A stretch of 64,000 bases of DNA from a virus. The DNA is taken from the IMG/VR virus record IMGVR_UViG_3300046832_000578; one strand, given 5' to 3'. Position 1 is the stretch's first letter. The number at the start of each line of letters is the position of its first letter. This document shows positions 22,499 to 43,056 of this stretch, piece by piece. Position numbers and translations under genes: made by a program. The notes under the pieces are model-generated. The model searched no databases, was not told where the DNA came from, and was given only the letters and a program-made list of their open reading frames with translations.

Positions 22499-22506
22499 CA
22501 TAAATA
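22499..22506 (+). promoter_or_regulatory. Late promoter core CATAAATA
   Basis: Intergenic, 30 nt upstream of the large structural gene. Confidence 0.6.
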
Positions 22507-22535
22507 TAGAGAACTAACCGAGAGAAGAATAAAGA

Positions 22536-28500: not shown

Positions 28501-28781
28501 GTTTCGCTGTTAATTTACCAGCAGAAGCGTCAGTTGAAGTTTATTACAAAACTGCCGTTGTTGGATCTACTGCATCCTTTGATTCTGTGCCATATACTTT
28601 AATGACAGTAGATGCACCTATTCCTAACTTTAGTAATGGAACAGAAAGATTTGTTGATGCTAGTTTTTCTGAAAATGACATGGATGGATTCGATGCAATT
28701 AAGTTAAAATTAGTTATGAAATCAGATAATAGTTCTGAAGTTCCAAGAATTAAAGATCTTCGTGTAATAGCGTGTGCATAA
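22536..28781 (+). CDS. Large virion structural protein (DUF4815 / VrlC-like)
   Basis: N..PYYDDF...K.FYRIL.RP..AVQARELTQ.Q.ILQNQ; APGAHR; RYTMRDIG.LE.RI..LEYYT.L; DPLAQTF; GSLFKSQNASTW; P..KDLR.IA. Confidence 0.88.
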   Translation: MAINFNTEPYYDDFDETKKFYRILYRPAYAVQARELTQMQTILQNQISRFGDHVFKEGAMVIPGQAAIDTKIGYVKLEAAYASVNADTVVEEFVGLTIQNATGLQAEVIHYVKSSGADPATLFVRYKNSGTSTTEKTFAAGDVISDVDTTYTVQAAASSPSGVGSIATITLGVYYIKGHFVLVEPQTIVLDKYTNTPSYRIGLVAEEEIITAEEDETLYDNAQNSFNYAAPGAHRYSITTTLTKLTDSSTADTDFIELIRTENGQVKKETRRTEYSVLEQTFARRTYDESGNYTVKNFEIDVREYRNNNRGAWSASRVYLIGDVVTNSGNTYVAKNSGTSVATTPPTHTAGAVFDGPGNTGIQWEYNITPYYNRGVYSPANADNLATNQANEANLAIGLEPGKAYVQGYEIEKTAAEYVTVPKSRDFVQVENAVIPATVGNYVLVTNVNSLPPVDTFGEVTLYDRLTSSVGTAPASATAVGTARVRLLEWHNGTIGTQTAIYKLSLFDIKMNGTFDFARKVKSFFFNVSSDANLSFSADIEPVLTRLIGSATASSSTTITGNGTSFQTDFIVGDVVSFGGTKRRITAIASQVSMTVDSSTTITGSTIDRVSTTVYEPENTSLIFPLPYYAIKGVRSSALANDTIYTVYEKFTGTATVSSSPQLTVSTASGNMASAAETDNYIVVDNDSGAGGAIVLPTGITPSGSSVTFDLSSTYSGRSMMVIAAVNKSGATLTEKTKTLVASATVAFTTQATAQDSTLLLGFADGYRLVSVKMKSGTFASPGATYSIDISDRYDFDNGQRTTHYDQARLILKNSYAPPEAPIEITFDYFTHSTGDYFTVNSYPANVDYKAIPYYQGISLRDSIDFRPRINDAGTGFSSTGSSVSLVPKRGIDVVTDFTYYLARRSKIAVDLGGNFFNIDGISSLNPGEPLDPALGLVLYNLNLEPYTFGTNSNNVQVGRIDNKRYTMRDIGKLEKRIDNLEYYTSLSLLEQQTESLDIIDSNGDSRFKNGFIVDGFTGHNTGDSLSPDYVCSIDMENAELRPFYSQQNINLLEKNSSDANRLSSNYKLYGDVITLPLDTTTPHVKLIEQPYATRLENINPFAVFTFLGDVKINPSSDDWFEVDRRPDLVIDIEGNYSTIKNIAEKKGVLGTVWNAWQNTWSGTSVNTGRTKFTFGNEWASGFGDVRLSRAEVQARFGIAEWGNARQITVESTATQVGQSRTGVKTSLVTKIDRQVVGDRVLQTAAIPYIRSRNVLIQVQKLKPNTRFYPFFDNIDISSYVTPATKMVYTPVAGTFNTDVNVGGLASGSARRINGDSQVCLNRGDVITGGTSGATAVVVGKDFNADTNAYALYVVNIIGTFTSTETITGSVSAATGTVGTITTGSLGGNLVTNFNGDIQLLFNIPNTDALRFRCGTREFKLIDTSTATGEFTSRGRGNYRAEGILETRQQTVHSVRNAELVEEQLSENQVIIQTSDRIVADTGWWDPLAQTFLIEQKGGCFLSKVDIFFATKDDKIPVMLEIREVVNGYPGKRVLPFSRVTLKPENVNLSATTVTLDGVSVNKYDTATTFTFPSPVYVQENTEYAIILASDSNAYKVWISQVGEQMPGSARTVSEQPYLGSLFKSQNASTWTADQTQDLKFVLYRAKFRTDVVANVEYVNDLIPLQVLGLDPFEVRNGQTKVRVYQDNHGVPSGTRVTISGVAAAVNGVPSAQLNATHVISDVDLDSYCITVATAATSSGYGGGSGIKATRNLQYDAVQPAVQLQTFSETQVDFGIKTTTGKSVDSTSQTPYVEDAAFSGILANETNYFTAPRMVASEVNETNSLGGNKSVTMNATFSSTNNALSPILDTHRTSMYLISNKINEPSETNMNVSGLDDNVILSALSGVTVSGNQITTSTRNAQFKTATVGKYLTIAGASSGSSTRLITAVASDGSSITFSAAPAAITGDATLTQRERFVDEIAPIESSTFSKYVTKTVRLANPSNFLRVRFAVNLPAEASVEVYYKTAVVGSTASFDSVPYTLMTVDAPIPNFSNGTERFVDASFSENDMDGFDAIKLKLVMKSDNSSEVPRIKDLRVIACA

Positions 28782-29008
28782 TGGAATTTGTTAAAATACA
28801 AGATAGTGATAGTTTGGTTAGAGATTTGTCTAGTGGTGCAGTAATAAATACTAATACAACAGACTATCAAAACTATCTTGCTAGAAAAAATTCTTCTAAA
28901 GATATGAAACAACAAATTAAACAAAATGCTGATAAGATCAAACAGATTGAATCAGATGTGTCAGAGATTAAGCAATTGCTTATTACTCTTATTAATAAGG
29001 AACGATAA
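28781..29008 (+). CDS. Small conserved phage protein (coiled-coil)
   Basis: L.RD..SGA.INT...Y..Y motif, commonly found after VrlC-like genes; TAATG coupling. Confidence 0.75.
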   Translation: MEFVKIQDSDSLVRDLSSGAVINTNTTDYQNYLARKNSSKDMKQQIKQNADKIKQIESDVSEIKQLLITLINKER

Positions 29009-30222
29009 TGGCAGTAATCGTATTACGATCAGTTAAAGGCAGTCCGCTTACGATTGCAGAGGCAGATGCTAATTTTACCAATCTAAACACTGAGGTTGGA
29101 ACTAAACTAGATGCTGCAACTTATACTGCAGCAGATGTTTTAACTAAACTTCTTACTGTTGACGGATCAGGATCTGGTATAGATGCTGATTTACTAGATG
29201 GTAGAAACTCTTCAACATCAAATACGGTAAATACTGTTGTTCACAGAGATAGTTCTGGTAACTTCTCTGCAGGAACTATTACTGCAACTTTGGTTGGAAA
29301 TGTCACAGGAAACCTCACAGGTAATGTAACTGGAACTGTTTCTGGTAATGCAACCAATGTGGATGGTACTGTAGCAATAAACAATGGTGGCACAGGTGCT
29401 ACTACTGCAGCAAACGCTAGAACAAATCTAGGTTTGGACACTATGGCAACTCAAGCATCTAACAGTGTATCAATCACTGGTGGTTCTATTGCTGGAATTA
29501 CAGACTTAGCGATTGCTGATGGTGGCACTGGTGCGAGCACTGTTGCTCAAGCAAGAACAAATCTTGGATTGGTTCTTGGTTCAGATGTTCAACCATTTTC
29601 CAATAACTTAACAGCACTCGCTGCTATAACAACTCATGGTCTGTTTGTTAAAGATACTGCAGGTACAGCAATAACAAGAAGTATTGCAGGTAGCACTTCT
29701 ATAACAGTAACTAATGGTGATGCAGTTTCTGGCAATCCTACTATTGCATTATCAAGCACACCTGAAGTTTCTGCACTTATTAAAACAGGAACTAATGGCT
29801 CTGGTAATATCGGTCAAACTGGCAATCGTTTCGGCACTATTTTTGGAACTGCAACTACTGCTCAATATGCTGACTTGGCAGAAAAATATACAACTGATGT
29901 AGAGTATGAAGCAGGAACTGTATTGGCAGTAGCAATCAATGGTAATGCAGAAGCAACTCAAACATGGCAGTCTGGACAAAGAGTTCTTGGTGTTATTTCT
30001 ACTAATCCAGCATTTTTAATGAATGATGAAGCAGATGGTCAAGCCATTGCACTTCGTGGTCGTGTTCCAGTTAAAGTAGTTGGTCCAATTCGTAAAGGAC
30101 AACCACTAATCTGTAATCAAGATGGTAAGGGCATATATGGTGATACTAGCAATTCATTTGCAATAGCATTAGAAACAAATGACGATGTTAATGTTAAACT
30201 TGTTGAATGTGTAATTTTATAA
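29008..30222 (+). CDS. Tail fibre protein with C-terminal peptidase G2-like intramolecular chaperone
   Basis: DADLLDG; GGTGA.T...AR.NLGL repeats; AQYADLAEKY, GV.ST.PA.LMN, ALRGRVPVKV.G. Confidence 0.8.
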   Translation: MAVIVLRSVKGSPLTIAEADANFTNLNTEVGTKLDAATYTAADVLTKLLTVDGSGSGIDADLLDGRNSSTSNTVNTVVHRDSSGNFSAGTITATLVGNVTGNLTGNVTGTVSGNATNVDGTVAINNGGTGATTAANARTNLGLDTMATQASNSVSITGGSIAGITDLAIADGGTGASTVAQARTNLGLVLGSDVQPFSNNLTALAAITTHGLFVKDTAGTAITRSIAGSTSITVTNGDAVSGNPTIALSSTPEVSALIKTGTNGSGNIGQTGNRFGTIFGTATTAQYADLAEKYTTDVEYEAGTVLAVAINGNAEATQTWQSGQRVLGVISTNPAFLMNDEADGQAIALRGRVPVKVVGPIRKGQPLICNQDGKGIYGDTSNSFAIALETNDDVNVKLVECVIL

Positions 30223-30228
30223 TGCTTC

Positions 30229-31308
30229 ATGATAACTCAACCAATTGTCTTTCATAAGACAGATGTATTTCTTTCAGATATATTAATCCCAAAAGATTTG
30301 GTGGTCTATCTTAAGACCACCGAAACTTGTCAACTTAATTGCCAACACTGTTTTACAAATGGTGTCAACGGTAAAAAGATATATTTTAATCCCCAAAGCA
30401 CAGTAGAGTGGTTCGAACGACTCCACGAGGAATGCCCATCTTTTAATGGTGGGAATATTACATTTCATGGAGGAGAACCATTCCTTGCTCCGCTAGATGA
30501 CATGTACTATGTATGGGATAAGGTATCAAAACTATTTCCTAATCTTAACTGGTCTTGTTCTACTAATCTCTGTTTTAATCTAACTGAAGACCACATGAAG
30601 TTTTTCAAAACTGTTCTAAAGAATGGATTCTGCACTTCATGGGATAAAGGTATTCGATTTGAAAATGATAAACAAGAAAACCTCTGGCGAAAGAATCTGC
30701 AAACTGTGGTAGATGCTGGGCATAATATCACTCTTAATATTAGTCTTAATAAACAACTAATGGAGATGGATACTACTGAGTTAGTTCTATGGCTCAATAC
30801 TCTAGGTGTTAATTGGGTGCAGTTTGAACGATTAACTCACGATGGTTCGGCTTTGGTAAACACTCATATATTTCCTGCAAATAAAGATCAAGACGACTGG
30901 TTTGTTAGAATGCACGAAACCTATCAGACAATAAAACCTAAATATAAAGATGTCCTACTGGAAGGTGTCTATTCCTCTATAACTAAAGGAATACATGGTG
31001 GAGTTCGTTGTAGAGATTGTGAACAGAAAATCTTCACAATTAATGCCGATGGAACTGTGGCAGGATGTCCAAATGCTGCAGTGGGTAATGGTTTTGGAGA
31101 TATATTTCAACCCATTAGAAGTCTACTCTCTGCCAGAGGAAGAATAAATAACATTACATGCGAGATAGAAAGAGATCCTCGTTGCTATACCTGTGATGTA
31201 TTTGATATCTGTAATAGCGACTGTCACCAATTGAAGTGGCAGGAAGATGTCTGTGCAGCACCGAAAACACTAATGCAAAGGTTAAAGAATGACAACAGCT
31301 GGCGATAA
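30229..31308 (+). CDS. Radical SAM/SPASM-domain enzyme
   Basis: CQLNCQHC (CxxxCxxC), FHGGEP; C-terminal C..C...GCP...C..C.....C...C cysteine set. Confidence 0.92.
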   Translation: MITQPIVFHKTDVFLSDILIPKDLVVYLKTTETCQLNCQHCFTNGVNGKKIYFNPQSTVEWFERLHEECPSFNGGNITFHGGEPFLAPLDDMYYVWDKVSKLFPNLNWSCSTNLCFNLTEDHMKFFKTVLKNGFCTSWDKGIRFENDKQENLWRKNLQTVVDAGHNITLNISLNKQLMEMDTTELVLWLNTLGVNWVQFERLTHDGSALVNTHIFPANKDQDDWFVRMHETYQTIKPKYKDVLLEGVYSSITKGIHGGVRCRDCEQKIFTINADGTVAGCPNAAVGNGFGDIFQPIRSLLSARGRINNITCEIERDPRCYTCDVFDICNSDCHQLKWQEDVCAAPKTLMQRLKNDNSWR

Positions 31309-31819
31309 TATAACAAAAGCAAATATTGTTGCTTCAATGGAATCTATTAGAAATACCTATAATGCAGGTATTGTGTGGCACAGTGGCAACCAACCATTTC
31401 AAACAGATATTACTGGTGGTAATGATAGTGGCTATGCAACAGGTTCTTTTAGTTCTGATATTTCTGACGCTAATGTTACTGCTTCTACAATAGTGGCTAA
31501 CTTCAGAGGATATGCTAATTTACTATCCAGAATTAGAAGTGTTCAATTAAAGAAATGGTATCAGATACAAGGTGATGTTAGAGCACAGTTAAACAGTGAT
31601 CAAACTAACATAACTAATTTAAAAGCTGATTATGCTGCTGATATGAGCACAACTGGATCAAGTGTTCCTTCTTCTTCAACTAATGTAGATGCTTCTGATT
31701 TAGATGATTTTGTAAATTCTTTATCTACAGCTATTAATAATCACAGAACAAATACTGTTCTTATTGAAGAATTTTACTGCCATAGCAATTGCCATGGATC
31801 TTGTCACGGAAGTTTATAA
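31289..31819 (+). CDS. Hypothetical protein with C-terminal CHxx triple repeat (candidate radical SAM substrate)
   Basis: Ends CHSNCHGSCHGSL; overlaps the upstream rSAM gene. Confidence 0.75.
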   Translation: MTTAGDNITKANIVASMESIRNTYNAGIVWHSGNQPFQTDITGGNDSGYATGSFSSDISDANVTASTIVANFRGYANLLSRIRSVQLKKWYQIQGDVRAQLNSDQTNITNLKADYAADMSTTGSSVPSSSTNVDASDLDDFVNSLSTAINNHRTNTVLIEEFYCHSNCHGSCHGSL

Positions 31820-32577
31820 TGTATAGTGTTCCATTTGATTCTGTTACCTTAAAAAGTATTATCACAGGAGAATTAGATTCTCCTAAAATTGATTATGCAA
31901 ATTCAACTATTAAAGGTAAAAATTTTATTACCTATTTTAGCAATTTAAAATATAGAACAGTTGATATTGATTTCACAGATGTTTCTATTGACGAGAAGGA
32001 AACTCTATTACTCGAATATATTAAACACAATTCCACTGCAAATATTGAGCAATTATTGGCCAGTGTTATTAAAAGTCTATTCTATCAAAAAGGATATAAT
32101 TTATCTTTAGTTGATAATTCGAAATTAGACATTGAATTTTTACAAAAAAGTATTTTAACCAATTCTGAGATAGAGCACTTTGTTAAAGAAAACGAAGAAT
32201 TGATTAAAGCACTTTGTGACATCTTAGATGGAACTTTACTATATGCAATTAAAAATTTAAATGCTTATAAAGAAGAACTTGGAGATTTTATAACAAATAA
32301 CATAGTAGAAGAAAAACAAGAAATAGGAAAAACATTTGTTAATCTATTTCAAAACGAAACTTTTAATTCTCACTATTATGCATCAATTCCAAAATTTGAT
32401 AAAATTAAATATTTTGATTTTTACTTTGATAGACCAATCTATTCAGGTAAGACACTTATGACTTATATAACAGGTGGTTGTATTATTTTCCCTCTGTTAA
32501 AGATGATATTAGATAATTCATTTACTCCACAACAATTACAAAATATTTACGAAGAGACAAATGTTACATCTCTATAA
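31819..32577 (+). CDS. Hypothetical protein in rSAM cassette
   Basis: TAATG coupling gives the likely start MYSVPF; long ORF. Confidence 0.75.
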   Translation: MYSVPFDSVTLKSIITGELDSPKIDYANSTIKGKNFITYFSNLKYRTVDIDFTDVSIDEKETLLLEYIKHNSTANIEQLLASVIKSLFYQKGYNLSLVDNSKLDIEFLQKSILTNSEIEHFVKENEELIKALCDILDGTLLYAIKNLNAYKEELGDFITNNIVEEKQEIGKTFVNLFQNETFNSHYYASIPKFDKIKYFDFYFDRPIYSGKTLMTYITGGCIIFPLLKMILDNSFTPQQLQNIYEETNVTSL

Positions 32578-33445
32578 TTCTTGTTATGCATATCCATATG
32601 CAATGTTCGATCCATCTTCTGCAGATTATATTGTAGTTGGCGACAAACACGCAATTTTAGGTGCGGGAGTTGAGAATAGTTTTTATTATAATAATGTGTT
32701 CATACATCAGTGTTATGCTCGTTTTAAAACATACGAAGATTTTATTAATAGTAATCTACTATTACCTGCATTTAGCAACAAACAAAAATTTATCATCTAT
32801 TGTGACAACGAAACTCTAATAAAATTATTTACTGCTAAACTTAAATCACATATTCAGTTTTTTGATAATAGTTTGTATTTTGATCTTGCTAAACTATTTG
32901 GTGTTCGTTTAAAAATTAAATCAAAACTAATTGATTCTTCCAATAAAGAAATCATTAACGATCTTGGTGATACTTTTATAGAACTAAATTCAATACCAAA
33001 TGTTAGTAAATTTCCGATAGATCCTTATTGGGTTTGGGAGAATGCTGGAATTGAATGGAAAGTTGCAAATAGAAATTGTGGTGTTCCAAACAGTCACATT
33101 AACATATTAAACGATCTTGTGAATCGTTATGTTTATTCGTTTTTTGATGAAGCACAAGAAAGTTATCTTTCAAGAAAAACTGGTGGCTGGGCAGTAGATG
33201 TAAATAATCAGCGATTTAGTACAGTAGCTTCCATGAAAGAATTATACATGGAAATGCGAAAAGAAATAGCGTTGTTTACAGATCCATTAATTTTACAATT
33301 TTTTGAAACTGGGGTCACCGAAGAATTGTTAAATGATCCAAAATTTTTATTACTGGTATCCAATGATAAAGTAGATACTTGGTTGATTAGATGGTTAATG
33401 AGATTACCACAATCAAAAATCACACAGTTAGGTTTAATAGCATGA
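32561..33445 (+). CDS. Hypothetical protein in rSAM cassette (IYCD motif)
   Basis: Long ORF overlapping both neighbours. Confidence 0.75.
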   Translation: MLHLYNSCYAYPYAMFDPSSADYIVVGDKHAILGAGVENSFYYNNVFIHQCYARFKTYEDFINSNLLLPAFSNKQKFIIYCDNETLIKLFTAKLKSHIQFFDNSLYFDLAKLFGVRLKIKSKLIDSSNKEIINDLGDTFIELNSIPNVSKFPIDPYWVWENAGIEWKVANRNCGVPNSHINILNDLVNRYVYSFFDEAQESYLSRKTGGWAVDVNNQRFSTVASMKELYMEMRKEIALFTDPLILQFFETGVTEELLNDPKFLLLVSNDKVDTWLIRWLMRLPQSKITQLGLIA

Positions 33446-34413
33446 TATATCTTTTCGATAATTGTTATCTATCAACTACAAATAGTATTGTTGAAAAATC
33501 TAAACAGATTTGGATAGGGTCTCATGCAAAATTAGATCGAGATCCAATGCTCAATCTTACATATGATATTTTACATTCATATAAAGAGGTCAACGATGAT
33601 GAGTTAGAAGAATTATTTAATGAAATTCATGAAGATTATTCGAATATTAAAACTGTAATTTATTGTGATGTTGAGAACTTTATGTATGTATACTCATACT
33701 TCTTTAATGGTGTATTAGAAGAATCTGCTGTTAAAGAATTATACTCATTCGATAGACTTAAAGAAAATTATAGAATTGGTGTATTCGCAACTAGAGATGT
33801 AGAGTTTGTAGATCTACCAAAGACTTTAAAGGGAACAGATACTGCATCTATCTTTTCTTCTTTATTGACTACAACAAGAATAGAAATTGCATTTGCAAAC
33901 GCTATGAGAGGTAATGAAGATGCCTTACAATTCTGCGTGGATCGTGCCACTGAAATGTATGATGGATCTCCTGGATTTTGGTCTAAAGATGCTGAACAAA
34001 ATTTACCAGCATTACTTTCAGATGAAGAATTTACAATTGCAAATTTAACTAATAATGAGTTTATTGATTCTTTTGTGGAACAGTTTGAGATCGATGAAGT
34101 ATTTCCAAATAAAATTGTAGATAAAATTAAAGAACATTTTGATTTTGATTATCTAGAACATTACTTTACTGTAATGAATAATACCACAGAATGGAAACCA
34201 ATGTGGGATCAAGATGCAAATATTTCTAAACAAAAATTTGTTGAGACTTACCTTTTAAATAAAGAGTTTGCGTCTGGCAATCAATTATTATTTCCTAACT
34301 ATTCTAATTTTGATTCAATTAATCCAATTTTCTGGAACACCATTCTCCATAAAAATACAGCATGGCTTGACAAGTATAAAGTGAAAAATGGAACTTATAA
34401 TCAAACCAACTGA
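33442..34413 (+). CDS. Hypothetical protein in rSAM cassette (IYCD motif; probable paralogue of the preceding gene)
   Basis: ATGA coupling gives the start MIYLFDNCY. Confidence 0.75.
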   Translation: MIYLFDNCYLSTTNSIVEKSKQIWIGSHAKLDRDPMLNLTYDILHSYKEVNDDELEELFNEIHEDYSNIKTVIYCDVENFMYVYSYFFNGVLEESAVKELYSFDRLKENYRIGVFATRDVEFVDLPKTLKGTDTASIFSSLLTTTRIEIAFANAMRGNEDALQFCVDRATEMYDGSPGFWSKDAEQNLPALLSDEEFTIANLTNNEFIDSFVEQFEIDEVFPNKIVDKIKEHFDFDYLEHYFTVMNNTTEWKPMWDQDANISKQKFVETYLLNKEFASGNQLLFPNYSNFDSINPIFWNTILHKNTAWLDKYKVKNGTYNQTN

Positions 34414-35434
34414 GTTATGTAATTTTAAGTGCACCTTTTGTTCATCAACCAAAATCGTAGAAGACAAAGCAAGCACTCTTGATCATCAGCACATTTTTGA
34501 TTTTTTAAAAAGATTTCCAAACACAAATAGTATTATTGTCAATGGCGGAGATCCGCTAATGATGAAACCAGAATACTACTTCACTATACTTGACTATATT
34601 GAAGAACACAATCTCCCAACAAACATAAGTTTCACCACAAATCTCTGGGCATTCTATAAGAAACCAGAGATGTGGACACCTTTATTCAAACACCCAAGAG
34701 TTGCAGTTACAACAAGTTTTCAATATGGATTTGGTCGTGTAATATCAGGAACCAGAGTCTATACTGAAAAAGACTTTTGGAATGTTAGCGATTTGTTCCT
34801 AAAAGAAGTTGGTTATCGTCCAGGATTTATTGCAGTTATCTCTGAAGAAAATGAGAAACATGCAATTCGTCATGTGGAGTTAGCCAAGAAAATGGATGTC
34901 CAATGTAAGTTAAACTATGCCATGGCATCTGGAGAACAATCATCACCATATCGCCTAAGTAAAATATACGAAATGTATATTGAAGTTTACGAACGAGGAC
35001 TTCATCCGTGGGAGTTTAATACTAAACAGATGATGACTCGTCTGAATAATATCGCTAATGTGTGTCCTCAAGCAAGAAATTGTGATGACCATATTAGAGC
35101 AATGAATCCAGAGGGTGATTATTACTCTTGTGGAGCGATGGGTGACGATAAAGAATATCCAATTAACTTTGTAAAGGAAGTTAAAGAAGGTGGTTTTATA
35201 ACTCCACTGCAAAACGCACCAGAGTTGTTTTCATTGAAAGATGAATGTGTTACTTGTCCGATGTTTAGTATTTGCAACGGATGTAAGAAAACGATTAAAG
35301 ATTTGAAACAGCATGGAATGGTTGAAGAGCATTGTTCTCATATGAAACAGTTGGCTCCAAGAATTATACAAATTAACAGTGAAACAGATTATGTCGAAGC
35401 AACTCAAAGAATCCATAAGAATCTCGTTTCTTAA
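34388..35434 (+). CDS. Radical SAM/SPASM-domain enzyme
   Basis: IIKPTELCNFKCTFC, GGDPL; CP....C...YSCG...C..C.MF.ICNGC...C. Confidence 0.92.
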   Translation: MELIIKPTELCNFKCTFCSSTKIVEDKASTLDHQHIFDFLKRFPNTNSIIVNGGDPLMMKPEYYFTILDYIEEHNLPTNISFTTNLWAFYKKPEMWTPLFKHPRVAVTTSFQYGFGRVISGTRVYTEKDFWNVSDLFLKEVGYRPGFIAVISEENEKHAIRHVELAKKMDVQCKLNYAMASGEQSSPYRLSKIYEMYIEVYERGLHPWEFNTKQMMTRLNNIANVCPQARNCDDHIRAMNPEGDYYSCGAMGDDKEYPINFVKEVKEGGFITPLQNAPELFSLKDECVTCPMFSICNGCKKTIKDLKQHGMVEEHCSHMKQLAPRIIQINSETDYVEATQRIHKNLVS

Positions 35435-37268
35435 TATTGATTTAAGAGTTCCTATTGTAAGGTTGCCGATTAACTGGCTTAACTTTAAGAACTATTATAT
35501 TAAACACGGTAAGTATGCGTCACATGTAAAATGGGAAGAACCAATTCTAAATTTAGAAGATTGGTCATTTGAAGATATCGTTGACTACTACGATAAACAA
35601 GATTCTGACATTTATGCATTTTCTAGTTATCTTTGGAGTCACATGGCTATTATGGCTGTGGCAAAGGAACTAAAGGAAAGAAACCCAAAAAGAATTATTG
35701 TGCTTGGTGGTCCACATCTTAATATTACGCATAATAAAATTGATTGGTTCTTTAAGAATAAATTTATAGATGCTATTTGTGAACCCACCAGTTATGGTGA
35801 ATGGTTTATTAATGACATTCTTGATCAATTTGTTGAAGGTGATATAGACTGGAAAGAAGTTTCATTTTCAATCTATAAAACTGGTCGTGGTAAAAGCCCA
35901 AATAAAATTGACTTTGAGTTTCCTGGAAGTTTAATTGCAGGTAATGAAGACATTTTATTTAAATGTAAAAATATTGCACTGGAGCGAGGTGTTCCATTAG
36001 TTCTACCCATTGAGTTAACTCGTGGATGTCCCTACGAATGTGTGTTCTGCGAATGGGGTGGTGGAATTGGTGGTAAGGTTATCCGTAAATCTATGAACTT
36101 TATTAAAGAAGATCTAGATTGGATACCTCAGGTTGGTATTGATCAAATTCAAATTCTTGATGCCAACTATGGTATTTACAAAGAAGATGAAGATGTCTCA
36201 AAATATATTGAAGAAATAAAATCGTTTTCTGGTCTTCCAACTCATGTTGAGATTTATGGTATGACCAAGTCTAAACAAGAACGAAGATGGGCAACAATTG
36301 AACCACTGGCAAGAGCAGGTGTGGTTGAACGATATAAATTAAGTTTACAAACTCTTAACAACGAGGTTCTTCGTAACATTAAACGAACTGATATTCCTCG
36401 TGAAAAAGACTTTGAGTTTGCCAAGTATCTATTCGATGAATATGGTATTCGAGCAGACTTTGAATTTATGATGGGTCTTCCAGGTTATACTCAAAACGAC
36501 TTTTATGACGAAGTTGATATTCAGTATGAGTATGGTTATGGGTTGGAACGATACCTTTGGTTATTTCTACCAGACTCTCCTGCATACGATCCTGAATATA
36601 TTAAAAAGTTTAATATTAAAACTGAAAAGATTTGCATTGGTAAATCTAAAATGAATAGTTATTCTTACGATGACATTAATATCTTTAAAGATTACCATAT
36701 ATCATCTGATCCTAAATTTTTATCTGATGTAGAGTTTGTGGTCGAAGCAGATGGTTACACAAGAAAAGACTTTACGGAGTTTTTCTTTATGAATCATTGG
36801 ATACTTGAAAATGTTTCCATGATTGACTTTACAGATACGATAGTTAAGCACAATATTGCAATCGGTAGGCTAGAAAAACCTTCTTTAATTTTTAGGAAAA
36901 TTTATGAAGGTATTACCTCTCCCAGTGAAAATAAATATGTATTGGCAATGCAAGATCTTAATAGTCAGATGTATGATTTAATGATGGGTAACAGGAAAGA
37001 GATCGTAGATTATAAACAATTTAATTTACCGTTTACTGATGTATCTGTTGATTTTTCTTACATTTACAAAGTGTGTGTTTTAGTATTTGAAGAGGATTAT
37101 ATTAAATTTTTAATAGGTATTGGTAAAGAACTTAATCTTGAGATCCCAGAAAATATAGTGGAGCAGTTTAAAGAAAAATTGAATAGTTATAAGAATACTT
37201 TTTCACCAAAATATGATAAATTCTATCAGATAAGAACATACTATGAACGAGTTATTAGAGAAGGTTAA
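35379..37268 (+). CDS. Cobalamin-binding radical SAM enzyme (class B methyltransferase-like)
   Basis: N-terminal FSSY.W...LGGPH B12-binding-like domain; E..RGCPYECVFC.W; DAN.G; .GLPG.T; start may be 35391. Confidence 0.85.
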   Translation: MKQIMSKQLKESIRISFLNIDLRVPIVRLPINWLNFKNYYIKHGKYASHVKWEEPILNLEDWSFEDIVDYYDKQDSDIYAFSSYLWSHMAIMAVAKELKERNPKRIIVLGGPHLNITHNKIDWFFKNKFIDAICEPTSYGEWFINDILDQFVEGDIDWKEVSFSIYKTGRGKSPNKIDFEFPGSLIAGNEDILFKCKNIALERGVPLVLPIELTRGCPYECVFCEWGGGIGGKVIRKSMNFIKEDLDWIPQVGIDQIQILDANYGIYKEDEDVSKYIEEIKSFSGLPTHVEIYGMTKSKQERRWATIEPLARAGVVERYKLSLQTLNNEVLRNIKRTDIPREKDFEFAKYLFDEYGIRADFEFMMGLPGYTQNDFYDEVDIQYEYGYGLERYLWLFLPDSPAYDPEYIKKFNIKTEKICIGKSKMNSYSYDDINIFKDYHISSDPKFLSDVEFVVEADGYTRKDFTEFFFMNHWILENVSMIDFTDTIVKHNIAIGRLEKPSLIFRKIYEGITSPSENKYVLAMQDLNSQMYDLMMGNRKEIVDYKQFNLPFTDVSVDFSYIYKVCVLVFEEDYIKFLIGIGKELNLEIPENIVEQFKEKLNSYKNTFSPKYDKFYQIRTYYERVIREG

Positions 37269-37938
37269 AACTATACCACATCTTCCTCTACTATTCTCAT
37301 TTGATGCTAAGCGAATAGAGAATGAGATTAGAGCGATGCCGTTTCCTCTAATGAGTTATAATGCAAATATACAAAAAGGATATAATCATAGCCCAGATGG
37401 TTGGAATAATCTTTCTTTGTATAGCTACGATGGAAGTATGTTTTGTGACACGAATGAAGGCGATGGTGGTAATGCTTTACTAGAAAGATTTGGTAAATTT
37501 CAAAAAACTGGATTGACAGAATATTTACCCTATACCTATGAGGTTTTAGAGGCTCTTGGTGCAGGAAAGTCTTTATGTAGAATTGAGGAAGTTATGCCGA
37601 GCACCATTATAGGTTGGCATAGCCATGTGTTAGAGTTTCATCAACCAGAGAACATATTGATAGTTCAGCTTCCTATTTGTATTCCAGAAGGATTTAAACA
37701 TTCGGTGGTGGATTATCGACAGTATAGAGGATCAGACTTTAATATAAAACCGATTGTTTCATATGACTCTAAATATATCGAAGGTGTTCCTTATATTTTT
37801 AACTCATATCATTATCACAATGTGTTTAATCATGGATCTACTCCAGCCCTTATGATAAGGTTTTTTGTGGATATAGATGATTTAAACCTAATAGAACCTG
37901 CAATAAATTGTTATTCTGGAGACCTAATCGTAGGTTGA
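37243..37938 (+). CDS. Asp/Asn beta-hydroxylase-like Fe(II)/2OG oxygenase
   Basis: W...SL, PYT, R.....P...IGWHSH, QLPI, FNS...H.V.N cupin pattern. Confidence 0.65.
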   Translation: MNELLEKVKTIPHLPLLFSFDAKRIENEIRAMPFPLMSYNANIQKGYNHSPDGWNNLSLYSYDGSMFCDTNEGDGGNALLERFGKFQKTGLTEYLPYTYEVLEALGAGKSLCRIEEVMPSTIIGWHSHVLEFHQPENILIVQLPICIPEGFKHSVVDYRQYRGSDFNIKPIVSYDSKYIEGVPYIFNSYHYHNVFNHGSTPALMIRFFVDIDDLNLIEPAINCYSGDLIVG

Positions 37939-37952
37939 CTAAATAATAAATA
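37938..37952 (+). promoter_or_regulatory. Tandem late promoter cores (ACTAAATA ATAAATA)
   Basis: Upstream of the fibre gene at 37986. Confidence 0.6.
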
Positions 37953-37985
37953 ACAAGTATGCTAAGAAACCATATAGGAATATAA

Positions 37986-38882
37986 ATGGCTGCGATTACA
38001 ACTAGAGAAACAGGAACTACTGGTGTCGGTGGAGTTACCAGAAAAAACCTGCCTTTGACGAATGGTGAGATTGACACTAATTTTATCAATCTAAACACTG
38101 ATAAGTTAGAAGCATCTTACACAGGAAATACTAATCTTGTTACTCTGGGAACAGTTACAACAGGAACTTGGAATGCGACTACAATTGCTACTACTCATGG
38201 TGGTACTGGTTTAACTTCCTTTACTTCTGGTGGTGCGGTTTATGCGACTAGCACCTCTGCTCTTACTACTGGAACATTACCTGTAGCTTCTGGTGGCACT
38301 GGAATCACAACTGCTCCGTCTAGTGGTACTCTTTTAATTGGAACATCTGCTGGTGGGTATTCTTCTGCCACATTGACTGGAACTGCAAATAGAGTCACAG
38401 TAACTAATTCCTCTGGTGGTATTACTTTATCTGCTCCGCAGGATATCGCAACAACTTCAAACCCACAGTTTGGTTCATTGGGTATTGGAACTGCTGCATC
38501 AGGAACTGCTGGTGAGATTCGAGCCACTAATCAGATTACATCATACTACTCTGATGAACGATTAAAAGAAGACATCGTAGAAATTACAGATGCCTTAGAA
38601 AAGGTTATGGCACTTCGTGGTGTAACCTACAAACCAAACTCTATTGCAGAGTCATTGGGTTACAAAAAACAAAATGAAGTTGGTGTAATTGCTCAAGATG
38701 TAGAAAAAGTTCTACCTGAAGCAGTGAAACCAGCACCATTTGATATTATGTTATTTGAAAATACAGAGATATCAAGATCTGGAGAGAACTACAAAACTGT
38801 CCAGTACGAAAAATTAGTTCCATTGCTAATCGAAGCAATCAAAGAACTAAATAAAGAAGTTCAGCAGCTAAAAGGGAAATAA
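37986..38882 (+). CDS. Tail fibre protein with peptidase S74 intramolecular chaperone
   Basis: YYSDERLKEDI..I..AL.KV..LRGV.Y, GVIAQ.V..VLPEAV, Y..V.YEKLVPLLIEAIKEL. Confidence 0.88.
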   Translation: MAAITTRETGTTGVGGVTRKNLPLTNGEIDTNFINLNTDKLEASYTGNTNLVTLGTVTTGTWNATTIATTHGGTGLTSFTSGGAVYATSTSALTTGTLPVASGGTGITTAPSSGTLLIGTSAGGYSSATLTGTANRVTVTNSSGGITLSAPQDIATTSNPQFGSLGIGTAASGTAGEIRATNQITSYYSDERLKEDIVEITDALEKVMALRGVTYKPNSIAESLGYKKQNEVGVIAQDVEKVLPEAVKPAPFDIMLFENTEISRSGENYKTVQYEKLVPLLIEAIKELNKEVQQLKGK

Positions 38883-38965
38883 TTAGCTGCACAACCTAGA
38901 TTGGGGAATCTAGGTTTTCAAATGTTTAGGGGATTAAACATCATGCATAAAAAGGGGAATTCAAT

Positions 38966-40093
38966 ATGCCTTCTACAATCTTAGGCGAACACGCACTCAC
39001 AATTCCAACTGGAACAACCGCAGAAAGACCAGGATCTCCAGCTGCTGGTATGATGAGATTTAATACCAGCACTGGATATCTTGAATACTATAATGTAGGA
39101 ACAAGTTCTTGGTTGGGAATTGGTCAATTATCAGTTTCTGGAGGAACTGGAGCTACATATACCGATGGTGGAACAACTTATGGTGTTGCAGCATTCACAT
39201 CATCTGGATCTTTAAGTATTATTAATGGAGGAACTCTTGATCTTGTGGCTGTCGGTGGTGGTGGTGGTGGTGGTAGCTGGGTTCCAGGTGGTGGTGGAGC
39301 AGGTGGTTTAGTTTCTCTAACAGGACAATATGTTTCTGGTGGAACATATTCTGCAGTCGTTGGTACTGGTGGACCTGGACAGCTGAATCCAGGTAATTAT
39401 GCTTGGCAAACTGGCATCCGATATGGTGGTGATTCATATATTGCTCTAGGTTCTAGTTATGTTATTACTGCAATGGGTGGTGGTCTTGGTGGATCTTATG
39501 ACGGTAATGGCGGTGATGCCAACGCATTAGCTCAAAATGGTGGTTCTGGTGGAGGTAGGGGAATAAATACTGCTAGCAATGGAACTGGATTACAAGTATC
39601 AGGATCTGGCGTAACGACTTCTCCTAATGGAAATACAGTACCTGCAACATCATTAACTGGCGGTTTTGGTAATAATGGTGGAGGTAATGGTTCTAGTAAT
39701 GAAGGTTACGGACAATTATCTGGAGGTGGTGCTGGTGGTGCTCCTGCTGGATATGGTTCTACTAATGGTGGAATGAATGGTAGACAAGTAGGATGGGTTG
39801 GAACATTTAATCAATATGGCACCAATACATCGAATTCAACTTCAGGCACTCGTGGATATTTCTGTGGTGGCGGTGGACAAGGAAATCACTCTGGTGGACC
39901 AGTTGGTTCTGGCGGATATGGTGGCGGTGGAACTGGATCATCTGCCATGAACTCATCAACTCCGCAAGCCCAACAGCCTGGACAAGCCAATACTGGCGGT
40001 GGCGGTGGTGGTGGTGGTATGTCTGGTGGCCAAGCATCAAGAGGTGGAACTGGTGGGTCTGGTTTGCTTTTAGTTAGATATATCGCTTCATAA
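38966..40093 (+). CDS. Glycine-rich virion-associated protein
   Basis: P.GTTA.RP...G..RFN N-motif; F.SSG, VGGGGGG, A.GGG.G, NTGGGGGG, GG.GGSG....RY. Confidence 0.8.
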   Translation: MPSTILGEHALTIPTGTTAERPGSPAAGMMRFNTSTGYLEYYNVGTSSWLGIGQLSVSGGTGATYTDGGTTYGVAAFTSSGSLSIINGGTLDLVAVGGGGGGGSWVPGGGGAGGLVSLTGQYVSGGTYSAVVGTGGPGQLNPGNYAWQTGIRYGGDSYIALGSSYVITAMGGGLGGSYDGNGGDANALAQNGGSGGGRGINTASNGTGLQVSGSGVTTSPNGNTVPATSLTGGFGNNGGGNGSSNEGYGQLSGGGAGGAPAGYGSTNGGMNGRQVGWVGTFNQYGTNTSNSTSGTRGYFCGGGGQGNHSGGPVGSGGYGGGGTGSSAMNSSTPQAQQPGQANTGGGGGGGGMSGGQASRGGTGGSGLLLVRYIAS

Positions 40094-40107
40094 TAGGAAA
40101 AAATAAC

Positions 40108-40482: not shown

Positions 40483-40487
40483 AATTA

Positions 40488-40509
40488 AAAACCACCTTTG
40501 GGTGGTTTT
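40488..40509 (+). terminator. Intrinsic terminator
   Basis: AAAACCACC-TTTG-GGTGGTTTT hairpin. Confidence 0.7.
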
Positions 40510-40550
40510 AATATCTAATTTATAGATAAACAATTTATGAGTGAATAATA

Positions 40551-41159
40551 ATGAATTTTACTGAGGTTATACCTTTTGTTACACCACTATATGTAATAAC
40601 TGATTTGAATTATAATTGTATTTTTGAAGATGTCCAAGATATTAAAAATACAACAGGTCACTTCAACTATAGATACAACAATAATGGAAAACAAACATCT
40701 AATTTAATTGACACTACCTTATCCCAACAATATACTGATATTAATAGTTTATTAAATTATTCAGGTGAACTATGTTCTTCTATGCTATCCAGATGGGGAT
40801 TAAATAGAAAGGTAGAATTAACTAATTGGTGGATTAATATTGATGGTGATAGTAACTATTGTTCTACACATATGCATCCAGGTTCGATAATTAGTGGGGT
40901 GTACTATATTAATGTTCCTGAGGGATCAGGTGAAATAGAATTTGAACGACCAGATCCACTAGTGCATTATTTTTATGCAGAAGAACCAAATGAAACTTCA
41001 TACACAATTTATAAAGTTCAACCACAAAAAGGTATGATGATATTATTTCCTTCATACATAAAACATAGAGTTATAGAAAATAAATTTAAAGATAAATCGC
41101 TAGAAAGAATATCCTTAGCGTTTAATTATTCGTTAATACATTCAGATAGAGAAAAATAA
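40551..41159 (+). CDS. Putative 2OG-Fe(II) oxygenase (TIGR02466-like)
   Basis: W.N, H.HP.S..SGVYY, G...F, G...LFPSY..H.V, RIS.AFN. Confidence 0.85.
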   Translation: MNFTEVIPFVTPLYVITDLNYNCIFEDVQDIKNTTGHFNYRYNNNGKQTSNLIDTTLSQQYTDINSLLNYSGELCSSMLSRWGLNRKVELTNWWINIDGDSNYCSTHMHPGSIISGVYYINVPEGSGEIEFERPDPLVHYFYAEEPNETSYTIYKVQPQKGMMILFPSYIKHRVIENKFKDKSLERISLAFNYSLIHSDREK

Positions 41160-41161
41160 TT

Positions 41162-41446
41162 ATGGCACATTTTAGAGTTTGCATGACTGGCGGTGAGGGT
41201 ATTTTTACCGACGACCAGATTGTTAAAGGAACCTGCACAGATTCTCCAGAGGTTAATTCAGAAATACTACATGTATGGACTACCTTTATGGAAATTGCAG
41301 AAGATGAAAATAAAAAGACTGGACATAAAATTACTGGTTTTATGATGTATGTAAATAATAAAAGAGTTCAAATAGAATATTGGGATCCATTTAATAATAT
41401 TACTATGGATCAATATGACCCTGATAGATTTAAAATGAAAAAGTGA
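41162..41446 (+). CDS. Hypothetical protein
   Basis: Fills the gap between the oxygenase genes. Confidence 0.65.
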   Translation: MAHFRVCMTGGEGIFTDDQIVKGTCTDSPEVNSEILHVWTTFMEIAEDENKKTGHKITGFMMYVNNKRVQIEYWDPFNNITMDQYDPDRFKMKK

Positions 41447-41458
41447 AAGTGAGATTAA

Positions 41459-42037
41459 ATGTTAGAAGAAATTATACCATTTGCAACTAAAATTTATGTG
41501 TATAGAGTGACACAACCATATAAACACTTGGTTGAAAATATTAAACAACTTAGAGATAGTATTCCAGATGAACACAACATTGGAGCGTCCAATCGTGGTG
41601 GGTGGCAGAGTAAGTATTTTGACTATGGAACACAAGAATGGATTAAAGATATTTTACATGAAATAGCACCACAAGTTACAAAAATTTATAAAGACTATGG
41701 AATAAAACGAGATGTTAAATTAGGTAATTATTGGTTTAACATCAATAAAAAATATGATTATAACATCGCCCATTCTCACCCATGGACTAACATTGTTGGG
41801 GTTCTTTATATAAAAGTGCCAAAGGATAGTGGAGTTCTTAAATTAGTTAGACCTGATGAATGCCAAGAATGGTTAGTTCCAGACGAATTGTCTGAAATTA
41901 ATGCTGGTAACTTTGGAATTGTTCCAGAAGAAGGAATGTTAGTTTTATTCCCAGCATATCTTAAACATTATGTGGAACAGAATAGAACCGAAGACGAGAA
42001 TGACGAAAGAATATCCATATCATTTAATTTTAATTGA
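41459..42037 (+). CDS. Putative 2OG-Fe(II) oxygenase (TIGR02466-like)
   Basis: SN.GGWQS, W.NIN....YN..H.HP, GV.Y, LFPAYL.H.V, RISISFN. Confidence 0.87.
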   Translation: MLEEIIPFATKIYVYRVTQPYKHLVENIKQLRDSIPDEHNIGASNRGGWQSKYFDYGTQEWIKDILHEIAPQVTKIYKDYGIKRDVKLGNYWFNINKKYDYNIAHSHPWTNIVGVLYIKVPKDSGVLKLVRPDECQEWLVPDELSEINAGNFGIVPEEGMLVLFPAYLKHYVEQNRTEDENDERISISFNFN

Positions 42038-42045
42038 GAAATATT

Positions 42046-42630
42046 ATGAAACAACAAATACCAAATACTACATGGGGTTTAGAAGTAGATACAGTTTCCA
42101 GGTGGGCATATGCTGAAGGTTTATTTACTAATGAAGAGTGTGATCAGATAATAAAACTTGGATATGAATATGAGTTAACTAAATCAGTGACTATTGGTGC
42201 AAGTTCTGAATATAGAGATAGTAGATCGGTCTTTCTAGAACCAAATCCAGATACAAGTTGGATTTATAAAAGACTCACAGATGCTGTTATGGAACTTAAC
42301 TCCAAATTCTTTAATTTTGATTTATTCGGCTTTACTGAAGGATTGCAGTTTACTGAGTATACCGCTCCAGGCGGAAAATATAACCCTCATATTGATAAAC
42401 TATACCTAAAATCTATCAGGAAACTTTCCATTACAGTTCAATTGACAGATCCAAATGAATATGAAGGTGGAGATTTTGAAATACTTGATGAGGTTCCAGG
42501 AGAAAAATTAAAAAGAACTCGTGGAACTTTACTAGCATTTCCAAGTTATACTTTACATGCAGTTACTCCAGTAACTAAGGGAACTAGAAACAGTCTAGTT
42601 AGTTGGATTAGTGGTAAACCTTTTAGATAA
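42046..42630 (+). CDS. 2OG-Fe(II) oxygenase (prolyl-4-hydroxylase/PiuC-like)
   Basis: Q.T.Y...G.Y..H.D, RKLS...QL.DP..YEGG, FPSY..H.V.PVT.G.R.SLV.W..G..FR. Confidence 0.88.
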   Translation: MKQQIPNTTWGLEVDTVSRWAYAEGLFTNEECDQIIKLGYEYELTKSVTIGASSEYRDSRSVFLEPNPDTSWIYKRLTDAVMELNSKFFNFDLFGFTEGLQFTEYTAPGGKYNPHIDKLYLKSIRKLSITVQLTDPNEYEGGDFEILDEVPGEKLKRTRGTLLAFPSYTLHAVTPVTKGTRNSLVSWISGKPFR

Positions 42631-42635
42631 CTAAG

Positions 42636-42655
42636 ACCCTCTTCGGAGGGTTTTT
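42636..42655 (+). terminator. Intrinsic terminator with cUUCGg tetraloop
   Basis: ACCCTC-TTCG-GAGGGT followed by a T run; classic T4-type. Confidence 0.88.
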
Positions 42656-42682
42656 GTTATTAGAAGTTGCAGTCTCTGGTAT

Positions 42683-42690
42683 TATAAATA
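42683..42690 (+). promoter_or_regulatory. T4 late promoter TATAAATA
   Basis: Exact T4 consensus, directly after the terminator and before a structural gene. Confidence 0.8.
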
Positions 42691-42718
42691 AGATGTATAG
42701 AATTTATTGGATTCCAGA

Positions 42719-43054: not shown

Positions 43055-43056
43055 TT

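Follow-up and report, generated by a model that had tools for sequence, protein, structure and literature searches.

A radical SAM/SPASM gene cassette with a Cys/His-repeat protein in the tail-fibre region of a T4-like phage, and its proposed role in virion protein maturation

Radical S-adenosylmethionine (rSAM) maturases are known to mature antibiotics, cofactors, and a small number of enzymes, and to our knowledge no such maturase has been reported to shape a phage particle. In the HXS antiphage system, HxsA carrying His-Xaa-Ser repeats is matured by the rSAM enzymes HxsB and HxsC together with HxsD (PMC13128918), and the triceptide synthases HaaB and HtkB join His C2 to the β-carbon two residues on in repeated three-residue motifs (PMC11499958). 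Here we analyzed a 64,000-nt stretch of viral DNA (IMG/VR record IMGVR_UViG_3300046832_000578; hereafter the window, whose numbering is used throughout), in which a cassette of eight genes at 30229–37938 lies between tail-fibre genes and encodes two rSAM enzymes of the SPASM type (rSAM-A and rSAM-B) together with a 176-aa protein ending in Cys-His repeats (CHxS protein). We interpret the cassette, with a probability of roughly 0.6, as a late-expressed module that matures a fibre-related virion protein, resembling those for peptides made by the ribosome and modified after translation (RiPPs). Judged from sequence, its novelty would lie in rSAM/SPASM protein maturation directed at a new substrate family in the fibre setting of virions and bacterial predators. 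No published description of the rSAM/CHxS module was found in literature searches; jumbo-phage papers list its genes only as accessory, an accessory or DNA-repair label is given in PMC8541153 and PMC5332604, and a marine survey reported as many as 12 rSAM genes in T4-like genomes and assigned them no function.

All eight open reading frames (ORFs) of the cassette are on the + strand, overlap or abut, and have fibre genes on both sides, and the first ATG (30229) follows the stop codon of the upstream fibre gene (30222) after a gap of 6 nt, just as described in the original prediction, which was made from the sequence alone (Table 1). Besides rSAM-A, rSAM-B, and the CHxS protein, they encode a B12-type rSAM enzyme, a cupin weakly similar to AspH, and three proteins listed there as unknowns. 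The ORF coordinates given in that list hold, except that two probable starts had to be moved: the third gene probably begins at ATG 31819, not at TTG 31789, and the fifth at ATG 33442 within a longest ORF from 33391. The ESM Atlas entry of the fifth-gene protein begins at residue 18.

Direct reading of the Cys residues bore out the assignment of two rSAM/SPASM enzymes. rSAM-A and rSAM-B carry CX3CX2C at residues 34–41 and 11–18, respectively, and both belong to the SPASM subfamily by the seven-Cys pattern CX9-15GX4C ... CX2CX5CX3C ... C for two auxiliary clusters (C264-x15-C280, C319-x2-C322-x5-C328-x3-C332, and C342 in rSAM-A; C232-x15-C248, C287-x2-C290-x5-C296-x2-C299, and C316 in rSAM-B). 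With the SPASM hidden Markov model (HMM) TIGR04085, they scored 23.4 and 24.9 bits, slightly below the 27-bit cut-off. The rSAM core model PF04055 (cut-off 29.5) gave 39.1 bits for rSAM-B and 23 bits for rSAM-A, which passed Fer4_12 (26.8 vs 22) and matched phrog_1802 with an E-value of 2.8e-55. Since homology of rSAM-A starts at residue 22–25, TTG 30298 or GTG 30301 are possible starts of its gene, the end of which overlaps the CHxS gene by 20 nt.

The CHxS protein ends in CHSNCHGSCHGSL, all its Cys residues are in this tail, and it is the only product of a real ORF in the window that contains CHxxCHxxCH. In the AlphaFold2 (AF2) model, it has a compact α/β body (predicted local distance difference test [pLDDT] 87.5, predicted template modelling score 0.81), and the tail is the sole low-confidence part (pLDDT ca. 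50) and is predicted to be flexible. An exhaustive search gave a family of 145 clusters at 50% identity. At the C-terminus, nearly all members carry two to six C-H-x-(S/N/A) units, and outside the marine lineage of the window most of them finish with R-x-R-R after the repeats. In an alignment of 90 diverse members (23–40% identity overall), C164, H165, C168, and H169 alone were invariant and H173 was at least 90% conserved; variants without the third Cys retain H-S-S. The tail is nearly invariant across 120 close relatives, and metagenomes hold hundreds of such relatives on contigs of up to ca. 165 kb. No Pfam or NCBIfam model matched the CHxS protein or the accessory proteins of the cassette. 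Fold searches with the CHxS body were likewise negative: Foldseek against the PDB found nothing at E ≤ 0.001, the BFVD search mainly returned its own family and three uncharacterized Myoviridae proteins, the ESM Atlas held nothing above a template-modelling score of 0.47, and the best Z in the VIA wide fold search was 4.6, with non-significant rows near Z 4 for TssK of the type VI secretion system and for phage baseplates.

In four phage lineages and in Bdellovibrionota, rSAM homologues were found together with CHxx-repeat proteins as well as tail, baseplate, or fibre genes, a co-occurrence on which the original prediction depended. The gene order of the window from the 2081-aa structural gene to the cupin gene is kept by 27 IMG/VR relatives as far as each contig reaches; the S74 fibre gene is also in place in most of those extending there, and the rSAM-A orthologue is immediately 5′ of the CHxS gene in every marine locus reaching there. 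Across these 27 loci, rSAM-A is 79–99% and rSAM-B 87–100% identical, vs 36–100% for neighbouring genes (36–89% in the more diverged loci, with values of 36–75% for the genes between and around the two enzymes), which suggests either a very strong constraint on the enzymes or a recent exchange of just those genes. In tblastn searches of 50,697 phage records, rSAM-A and rSAM-B matched the identical 15, namely those of the jumbo phages Atu_ph07, Phosso, the RSL2/RSF1/FLC group, SURPRISE13, RsoM3USA, and pPa_SNUABM_DT01 (DT01). In Atu_ph07, RSL2, and DT01, a cupin gene is followed by the rSAM-A orthologue (39–48% identity), which is directly upstream of the gene for a small CHxS-type protein, gp170, ORF068, or gp065, with the C-terminus FCHSSCHASCHNSRSRR, VCHSSCHTSCHGSRGRR, or ICHTSCHTSCHSARGRR, respectively. 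Homologues of the third gene product (ORF070-like; gp169 in Atu_ph07 and ORF070 in RSL2) and of rSAM-B (49–60% identity) follow the CHxS gene in these phages, and the ORF070-like homologues do so in Bdellovibrionota as well. The jumbo-phage modules add more rSAM genes and PF13759 oxygenase genes and are located near baseplate or virion structural genes. The same rSAM-A/CHxS adjacency was found for the metagenomic relatives P0243, P0218, and P0261. Based on the synteny in marine and jumbo phages and on profile matches, rSAM-A, the CHxS protein, the ORF069-like and ORF070-like proteins, and rSAM-B make up the conserved core. Around it the clusters vary, with three to six rSAM genes, a B12-type rSAM gene, several oxygenase genes, and sometimes an aminotransferase gene.

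The body of the CHxS protein has affinities with tail fibres. Its N-terminal ca. 95 residues, with the signature V-W-H-S-G-N-x-P, match a unit present four times in the 600-aa P0167, a tail-fibre protein with many tail-fibre PHROG matches. In P0218, a Gly_rich_2 domain (E 7e-11) is fused to the CHxS module. P0243, the gene of which is directly 3′ of a gene for a 359-aa rSAM enzyme, contains FYCHSQCHSNCY... followed seven residues on by an S74 chaperone domain starting S-D-K-R-L-K-K. S74 chaperone domains cleave themselves off once the fibre is assembled; the motif of P0243 would therefore become the mature C-terminus of a fibre. We also considered that the CHxS body is uniquely hypervariable in the manner of a receptor-binding protein, and this was rejected: the body diverges (55–99%) about as much as the fibre genes around it, and it is rather the conservation of rSAM-A and rSAM-B that is conspicuous.

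A virion protein as the target, as the original prediction had proposed, is supported by published mass spectrometry. Attai et al. (2018; PMC6102473) purified Atu_ph07 virions and examined gel fragments by electrospray ionization tandem mass spectrometry, and their virion list contains the CHxS homologue gp170 (31.89 kDa) with eight unique peptides and 35.16% coverage (PMC6102473 Table S5). The masses that we computed for this homologue (31.89 kDa), gp176 (66.07 kDa), and gp177 (21.66 kDa) all match Table S5, indicating that its numbering is the same as that of the genome record. gp170 was found in fragments 1–9 and was most abundant in fragment 1, while the other 30–34 kDa proteins of the table peak in fragments 7–8, those of ca. 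32 kDa in fragment 7, and the 117–137 kDa proteins in fragments 1–2 (PMC6102473 Table S5). Since its size peers peak so far below it, gp170 migrates far above its monomer mass. The shift could reflect linkage through the tail, where the only Cys residues of gp170 are located, by either a disulfide or a bond that is not reducible; the C-terminal tryptic peptide of gp170 has 30 residues and ends in ...CHSSCHASCHNSR. gp176, which shares a C-terminal domain with the upstream fibre of the window, is also listed, and the rSAM enzymes gp165, gp168, and gp171, the ORF070-like gp169, and the cupin gp172 are not (PMC6102473).

Several points weigh against a maturation module. No modification has been observed, and all of the chemistry is inferred. 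The scores of both SPASM enzymes against every named maturase family are far below the cut-offs, and neither enzyme has an N-terminal RiPP recognition element (RRE), as both start directly with the rSAM core. The window CHxS protein and gp170 match by BLAST in the tail only, their wider relation being a Foldseek hit and synteny, so that the virion status of the former would follow from a homologue in the proteome of another phage. In the RSL2 record, the label of virion structural protein is given to ORF057 and ORF065 and not to the CHxS homologue ORF068. The loading buffer listed in the Atu_ph07 methods names no reducing agent (PMC6102473); the shift of gp170 could therefore be due to disulfides through its three tail Cys residues, which would imply free thiols. 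P0261 (L088:8001–8558, on a 572-kb metagenomic contig) has a Pro-rich tail (…AEPPPPPADGGRGRR) with no Cys or His, even though its adjacent upstream rSAM-A is intact and fibre404-like and ORF070-like genes are also present; a search for a hidden motif reached by a frameshift in P0261 found none.

These last two points would also fit the view that the Cys/His tail is an unmodified metal-binding (Zn, Fe, Ni, or Cu) or disulfide motif and that the rSAM enzymes have some other target, either a different fibre protein or a small molecule. Both Cys and His are well-known ligands of metals, a spacing of four would put the Cys residues on one face of a helix, and the CHxS variants losing the third Cys keep the His. 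On the other hand, adjacency and translational coupling of rSAM-A and the CHxS gene are near-obligatory in lineages that share little else, the module contains no other conserved substrate candidate, and the tail is predicted to be flexible and is terminal like a core peptide. We regard an unmodified tail as unlikely.

We compared the cassette enzymes with known maturase families. DarE (NF038005) and DynA (NF041298) of the darobactin and dynobactin systems were the best-scoring named families: DarE for rSAM-A (E 2.3e-8, with further weak matches to DarW, DynA, and QhpD) and DynA, over nearly the full length, for rSAM-B (E 3.1e-14, followed by anSME at 2.7e-9 and HxsC at 6.5e-8). The nearest solved structure to rSAM-B is anSME (E 7.6e-4). 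The matches thus point to peptide or protein maturases (DarE, DynA, anSME, and HxsC) and not to QueE, MoaA, or PqqE, the outcome that had been named beforehand as speaking against the original prediction. Like the cassette enzymes, DarE and DynA are SPASM rSAM enzymes without an RRE, and daropeptide enzymes cross-link side chains in a short motif. However, rSAM-A scored 33.2 bits against a DarE cut-off of 650 and rSAM-B 52.7 bits against a DynA cut-off of 450, which places them outside these families, and unlike daropeptides the CHxS tail has no Trp and belongs to a 176-aa protein rather than to a short secreted antibiotic precursor, with no exporter. The H-x-S/N units of the tail have the same register as triceptide motifs, while the YhhB/XyeB-type model NF041707 gave 19.4 bits vs 445 and the invariant Cys has no triceptide counterpart. 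anSME and QhpD are similar in that they are SPASM enzymes acting on Cys/Ser or forming Cys thioethers in proteins that stay functional subunits; here too the scores are far under the cut-offs, and neither a C/S-x-P-x-R sulfatase motif nor a dehydrogenase context is present. Sactipeptides and ranthipeptides share the Cys-rich C-terminal core but their maturases, unlike the cassette enzymes, usually have an RRE, and the scores lie outside these families as well (RumMC NF035951, 19.6 bits vs 720; PapB NF047865, 20 vs 340). Because all named-family scores are far under the cut-offs, the SPASM enzymes of the cassette represent new families.

The HXS system resembles the cassette in having two rSAM enzymes with small partners and a whole folded protein, not a short peptide, as the target (PMC13128918), and its short H-x-S-type repeats have a parallel in the window, where two of the three repeats read H-G-S. 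In contrast, rSAM-B scored 31.8 bits with the HxsC model (TIGR03977) vs a cut-off of 267.9, over the rSAM core only, the CHxS protein lacks a peptidoglycan-binding domain and shows no sign of being processed at its N-terminus, and an invariant Cys precedes each His. Furthermore, HXS is a periplasmic defence effector system, whereas the present module is found in phages and predators beside fibre genes and has a substrate homologue in virions. PADLOC gave generic rSAM-core matches only (viperin and PDC-M51A), indicating that the cassette is not a known defence system. Metal-binding His motifs occur in T4 gp37, gp12, and spike tips. The CHxS protein is comparable to such S74 or metal-binding fibres in that its body shares a fibre repeat, S74 follows the motif in P0243, and its gene is located among fibre genes; it differs from T4 gp37 and gp12 in its compact α/β model with no fold match, its Cys-His period of four instead of HxH, and its dedicated rSAM enzymes.

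SPASM enzymes make pyrroloquinoline quinone (PQQ) and mycofactocin from peptide C-termini, and by this precedent the CHxS protein could be a scaffold, with a small product (a cofactor, metallophore, or toxin) being cut from its C-terminus and acting on the envelope or metabolism of the host and its virion association being incidental. The large and varied clusters, with three to six rSAM enzymes, a B12-type rSAM, oxygenases, and in some cases an aminotransferase, resemble small-molecule pathways, and the CHxS body evolves fast while the tail is frozen. The MftC and PqqE-type models, however, gave only weak matches, and neither the window cassette nor the jumbo-phage clusters yielded a protease or an exporter. 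Moreover, the body is a confidently folded domain of ca. 160 residues with fibre-related features and fusions, gp170 is a well-covered virion protein, and the motif of P0243 would stand at the mature fibre C-terminus. A scaffold for a small product is rather improbable. In line with the original claim that transporter, protease, and nucleotide-modification genes are missing, none of these families was matched in the family-library scans of 29008–43311; with a folded 176-aa protein as precursor, this also sets the cassette apart from a classical secreted RiPP cluster.

It is very improbable that the cassette is an auxiliary metabolic, nucleic-acid, or cofactor pathway (Fe–S, DNA or tRNA modification, molybdopterin, or queuosine) that is merely located in the fibre region. 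Database records label orthologues as MoaA or Fe–S oxidoreductase, weak matches to MoaA and NirJ were obtained, and the accessory or DNA-repair classification in published papers points the same way. Nevertheless, the MoaA, QueE, and PqqE-type scores were lower than those of the peptide maturases, all being far under the cut-offs, the family scans revealed no nucleotide-handling partner genes in the cassette, and a metabolic role leaves unexplained why the genes are strictly tied to the CHxS protein and to fibre or baseplate genes.

Returning to maturation of the CHxS protein, we infer the enzyme–substrate relation, the type of chemistry, and the role in the particle as follows. The CHxS protein would be made as a folded α/β body with the flexible tail CHSN-CHGS-CHGS-L, on which rSAM-A, encoded just upstream and translationally coupled, and rSAM-B would act. 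Three accessory proteins (two ORF069-like and one ORF070-like) may assist the SPASM enzymes. The most likely products would be intra- or intermolecular C–C, C–S, or C–O cross-links, the candidate sites being the invariant Cys and His residues together with the small residue at position +2 from each His. Depending on the lineage, the tail might be decorated further by a B12-type C-methyltransferase, an AspH-like cupin, and 2-oxoglutarate (2OG) oxygenases. The matured protein would then be incorporated into the tail or fibre apparatus, where a rigid tail, possibly metal-binding or covalently tethered, could aid stability or host contact. If the module modifies a virion protein in this manner, enzymatic cross-linking and decoration would be a new layer of tail and fibre building, and a function would be provided for the clusters of three to 12 rSAM genes in jumbo and marine T4-like phages. 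It would also define a new substrate family (the 145 clusters above) and at least two accessory families without a fold match. The cultured systems Atu_ph07, RSL2, and DT01 carry the module, and the idea is directly testable there, in part with existing mass-spectrometry data.

To search cellular genomes, the DNA pattern CHxxCHxxCHxxRxRR-stop was scanned in the GTDB species genomes (596 Gb), and loci of 8 kb were taken. Forty-seven loci were found against a calculated expectation of ca. 0.1; 38 of them are real CHxS family members, and 27 of the 47 are from Bdellovibrionota, on contigs of up to 2.8 Mb. Several non-Bdellovibrionota matches look like phage contigs binned into metagenome-assembled genomes. 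rSAM-A-type genes were present in 19 loci and rSAM-B-type genes in 15, and 28 of the 38 real members had either; rSAM-B was 52–65% identical in most of the cellular-genome loci and 35% and 69% in two. S74-type fibre genes adjoin the module in Bdellovibrionota. On a 1.29-Mb Halobacteriovoraceae contig, the module, including a gene for a fibre with an S74 chaperone, is located between housekeeping genes, and these flanks speak against the possibility that the predator copies reside in a prophage. The distribution in Bdellovibrionota is patchy (rSAM-B orthologue in 7 of 201 sampled genomes), and no signal peptide is evident on the copies there. On a 2.84-Mb Bacteriovoracaceae contig, the predator module also contains, with the rSAM genes on one side and the ORF070-like gene on the other, a gene (L085:2866–9933, − strand) for a protein of 2355 aa that carries RCC1 repeats and a Big_2 domain.

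Darobactin-type products dock into an outer-membrane protein. A broader and speculative reading, which we hold to be doubtful, is that large contractile-tailed phages and predatory Bdellovibrionota share an rSAM "workshop" that forges a cross-linked Cys/His knot at the end of a small fibre-associated protein to attack Gram-negative envelopes; the knot might serve as a tether through covalent bonds, as a tip loaded with metal, or as a rigid strand docking into an outer-membrane protein. If so, RiPP chemistry would build an attachment organelle of virions or predators, and viruses and bacterial predators would share a host-attack module horizontally. The presence of the module in predator chromosomes beside phage-like fibre genes points to a shared way to attach to or breach Gram-negative cells.

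Table 1 Coordinates of the cassette genes and of surrounding features in the window.
Feature	Position	Strand	Remarks
Late-type promoter-like motif CATAAATA	22500..22507	+	29 nt 5′ of the 2081-aa structural gene
Structural protein, 2081 aa (phrog_358)	22536–28781	+	DUF4815 repeats; weak CBM_5_12 carbohydrate-binding match
Upstream tail-fibre-like protein, 404 aa	29008..30222	+	Tail-fibre PHROGs; weak Peptidase_G2 intramolecular-chaperone match
rSAM-A, radical SAM/SPASM	30229..31308	+	Proposed maturase of the CHxS protein; CX3CX2C and seven-Cys SPASM pattern
CHxS protein, 176 aa	31289..31819	+	Proposed substrate and virion protein; body and C-terminal (C-H-x-S/N)3 tail
Coding sequence of the tail CHSN-CHGS-CHGS-L	31778..31816	+	
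ORF070-like accessory protein, 252 aa from ATG (phrog_20767)	31819..32577	+	Homologues 3′ of the CHxS gene elsewhere
ORF069-like accessory protein, 294 aa	32561..33445	+	First of tandem paralogues; N-terminus M-L-H-L-Y-N-x-C-Y
ORF069-like accessory protein, 323 aa	33442..34413	+	Second paralogue; same RSL2 ORF069-like HMM
rSAM-B, second radical SAM/SPASM	34388..35434	+	Most conserved enzyme of the module
Class-B (B12-type) radical SAM, 629 aa	35379..37268	+	Variable tailoring component
Cupin, weakly Asp/Asn β-hydroxylase-like	37243..37938	+	Candidate tailoring oxygenase
Tail-fibre protein with C-terminal S74 chaperone domain	37986..38882	+	Own late-type motif at 37946
Gly-rich protein, 375 aa	38966..40093	+	Possible physical partner; weak Gly_rich_2, E 1.4e-4
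Three 2OG-Fe(II) oxygenases	40551..42630	+	40551–41159 and 41459–42037, PF13759; 42034–42630, PF13640
Terminator-like hairpin ending the unit	42633..42654	+	TATAAATA motif next, at 42683

The window comes from a T4-like myovirus and spans its tail and baseplate region, which encodes a lysozyme-bearing hub of the gp5 type, a wedge protein of the gp6 type, more wedge proteins, several fibres, and the tail sheath. The gp6 homologue is closest (ca. 42% identity) to those of the Pelagibacter phages Mosig and HTVC008M and the Methylophilales phage Melnitz; the window derives from an uncultured T4-like phage that, judged by its nearest cultured relatives, is probably marine. Nucleotide similarity to known phages was limited to a single 128-nt match to the rSAM core of Atu_ph07. 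In the upstream fibre, residues 264–376 are 42–51% identical to module-adjacent proteins in Atu_ph07 (gp176), L046, L054, L064, L081, and L088. The downstream fibre matched Peptidase_S74 (PF13884) at residues 189–248 (62.6 bits vs a cut-off of 22, E 4.3e-17) and many tail-fibre PHROGs. Ahead of the module, L046 has pieces homologous to the 2081-aa protein, and Atu_ph07 (gp180) and L088 have giant structural genes. In L054, L064, and L081 (Rhodobacteraceae bin Water_Bin34), tandem short CHxS proteins of 125–140 aa come right after the gene for the fibre404-like domain; a different rSAM type follows the CHxS pair, and rSAM-A is absent within the locus.

Expression of the cassette as part of a late structural transcript had been proposed originally, and the signals in the window are consistent with it. 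ATAAATA is found in intergenic gaps at 7466, 22500, 37946, 42684, 49736, 58943, and 63098, 24–40 nt 5′ of seven ORF starts (7517, 22536, 37986, 42707, 49765, 58973, and 63146, respectively), and is probably the late promoter signature of this phage. Two further matches in 22536–37938 (28844 and 31144) are intragenic with no start within 80 nt, and all gene junctions in this interval are overlaps or gaps of at most 6 nt. Terminator-like hairpins on the + strand were seen only near 40488–40509 and at 42633–42654. Given the motif at 22500, the tight junctions, and no later start-linked motif, the cassette probably shares a transcript with the genes of the 2081-aa protein and of the upstream fibre, and the motif at 22500 is the probable start of this unit; late expression is deduced from these signals.

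Among the tailoring enzymes, the B12-type rSAM had been predicted to bind B12. Its rSAM part is clear (CX3CX2C at 217–224; Radical_SAM 50.1 bits vs 29.5, residues 211–377), and it matched the class-B family KedN5 (E 1.5e-36, 125.8 bits vs a 700-bit cut-off), but B12-binding (PF02310, residues 63–119) itself was below threshold at 28.8 bits vs 32.1. The 629-aa protein fits the class-B architecture and is a probable C-methyltransferase. B12-type rSAM genes are also present in modules L034, L044, L067, L073, and L083. Likewise, the cupin, proposed to be Asp/Asn-hydroxylase-like, showed a weak match to PF05118 (Asp_Arg_Hydrox; 20.7 bits, E 3.9e-4) that remains below the cut-off of 22.6, and it had no sequence match in the PDB. 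Its gene is tandemly duplicated in related marine loci, and other cupin genes are upstream of rSAM-A in jumbo phages and Bdellovibrionota.

The limits initially set for the cassette were too narrow. The three proteins first listed as unknowns are part of the conserved module, which probably reaches as far as ca. 42654 and so takes in the Gly-rich protein and three 2OG-Fe(II) oxygenases. The latter are probable further tailoring enzymes; PF13759 oxygenases occur in the rSAM clusters of RSL2, DT01, L034, and L088, and a small ORF separates the first two of the oxygenase genes in the window. An 83-nt spacer (window 38888–38965) precedes the Gly-rich gene.

Both tandem paralogues matched an HMM of RSL2 ORF069-like proteins (16-sequence search) at their N-termini, the first with an E-value of 7.6e-5 and the second with 3.4e-4 (best domain 1.8e-5), while unrelated cassette proteins scored E > 0.17. 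Their pairwise match to each other is weak (E 0.11). The ORF070-like protein was modelled by AF2 with a pLDDT of 87, and fold searches with this model gave no match (best Z 3.4); weak, scattered similarities to parts of rSAM barrels were not accepted as evidence. ESM Atlas feature searches with the ORF070-like and ORF069-like proteins returned nothing informative. In the metagenomic contigs L031 and L034, a class I/II aminotransferase gene (PF00155) is located beside the rSAM genes, which hints at extra chemistry. Just past the terminator and TATAAATA of the window, a 115-aa protein (42707–43054) shows 46% identity to the product of a module-adjacent gene in L045.

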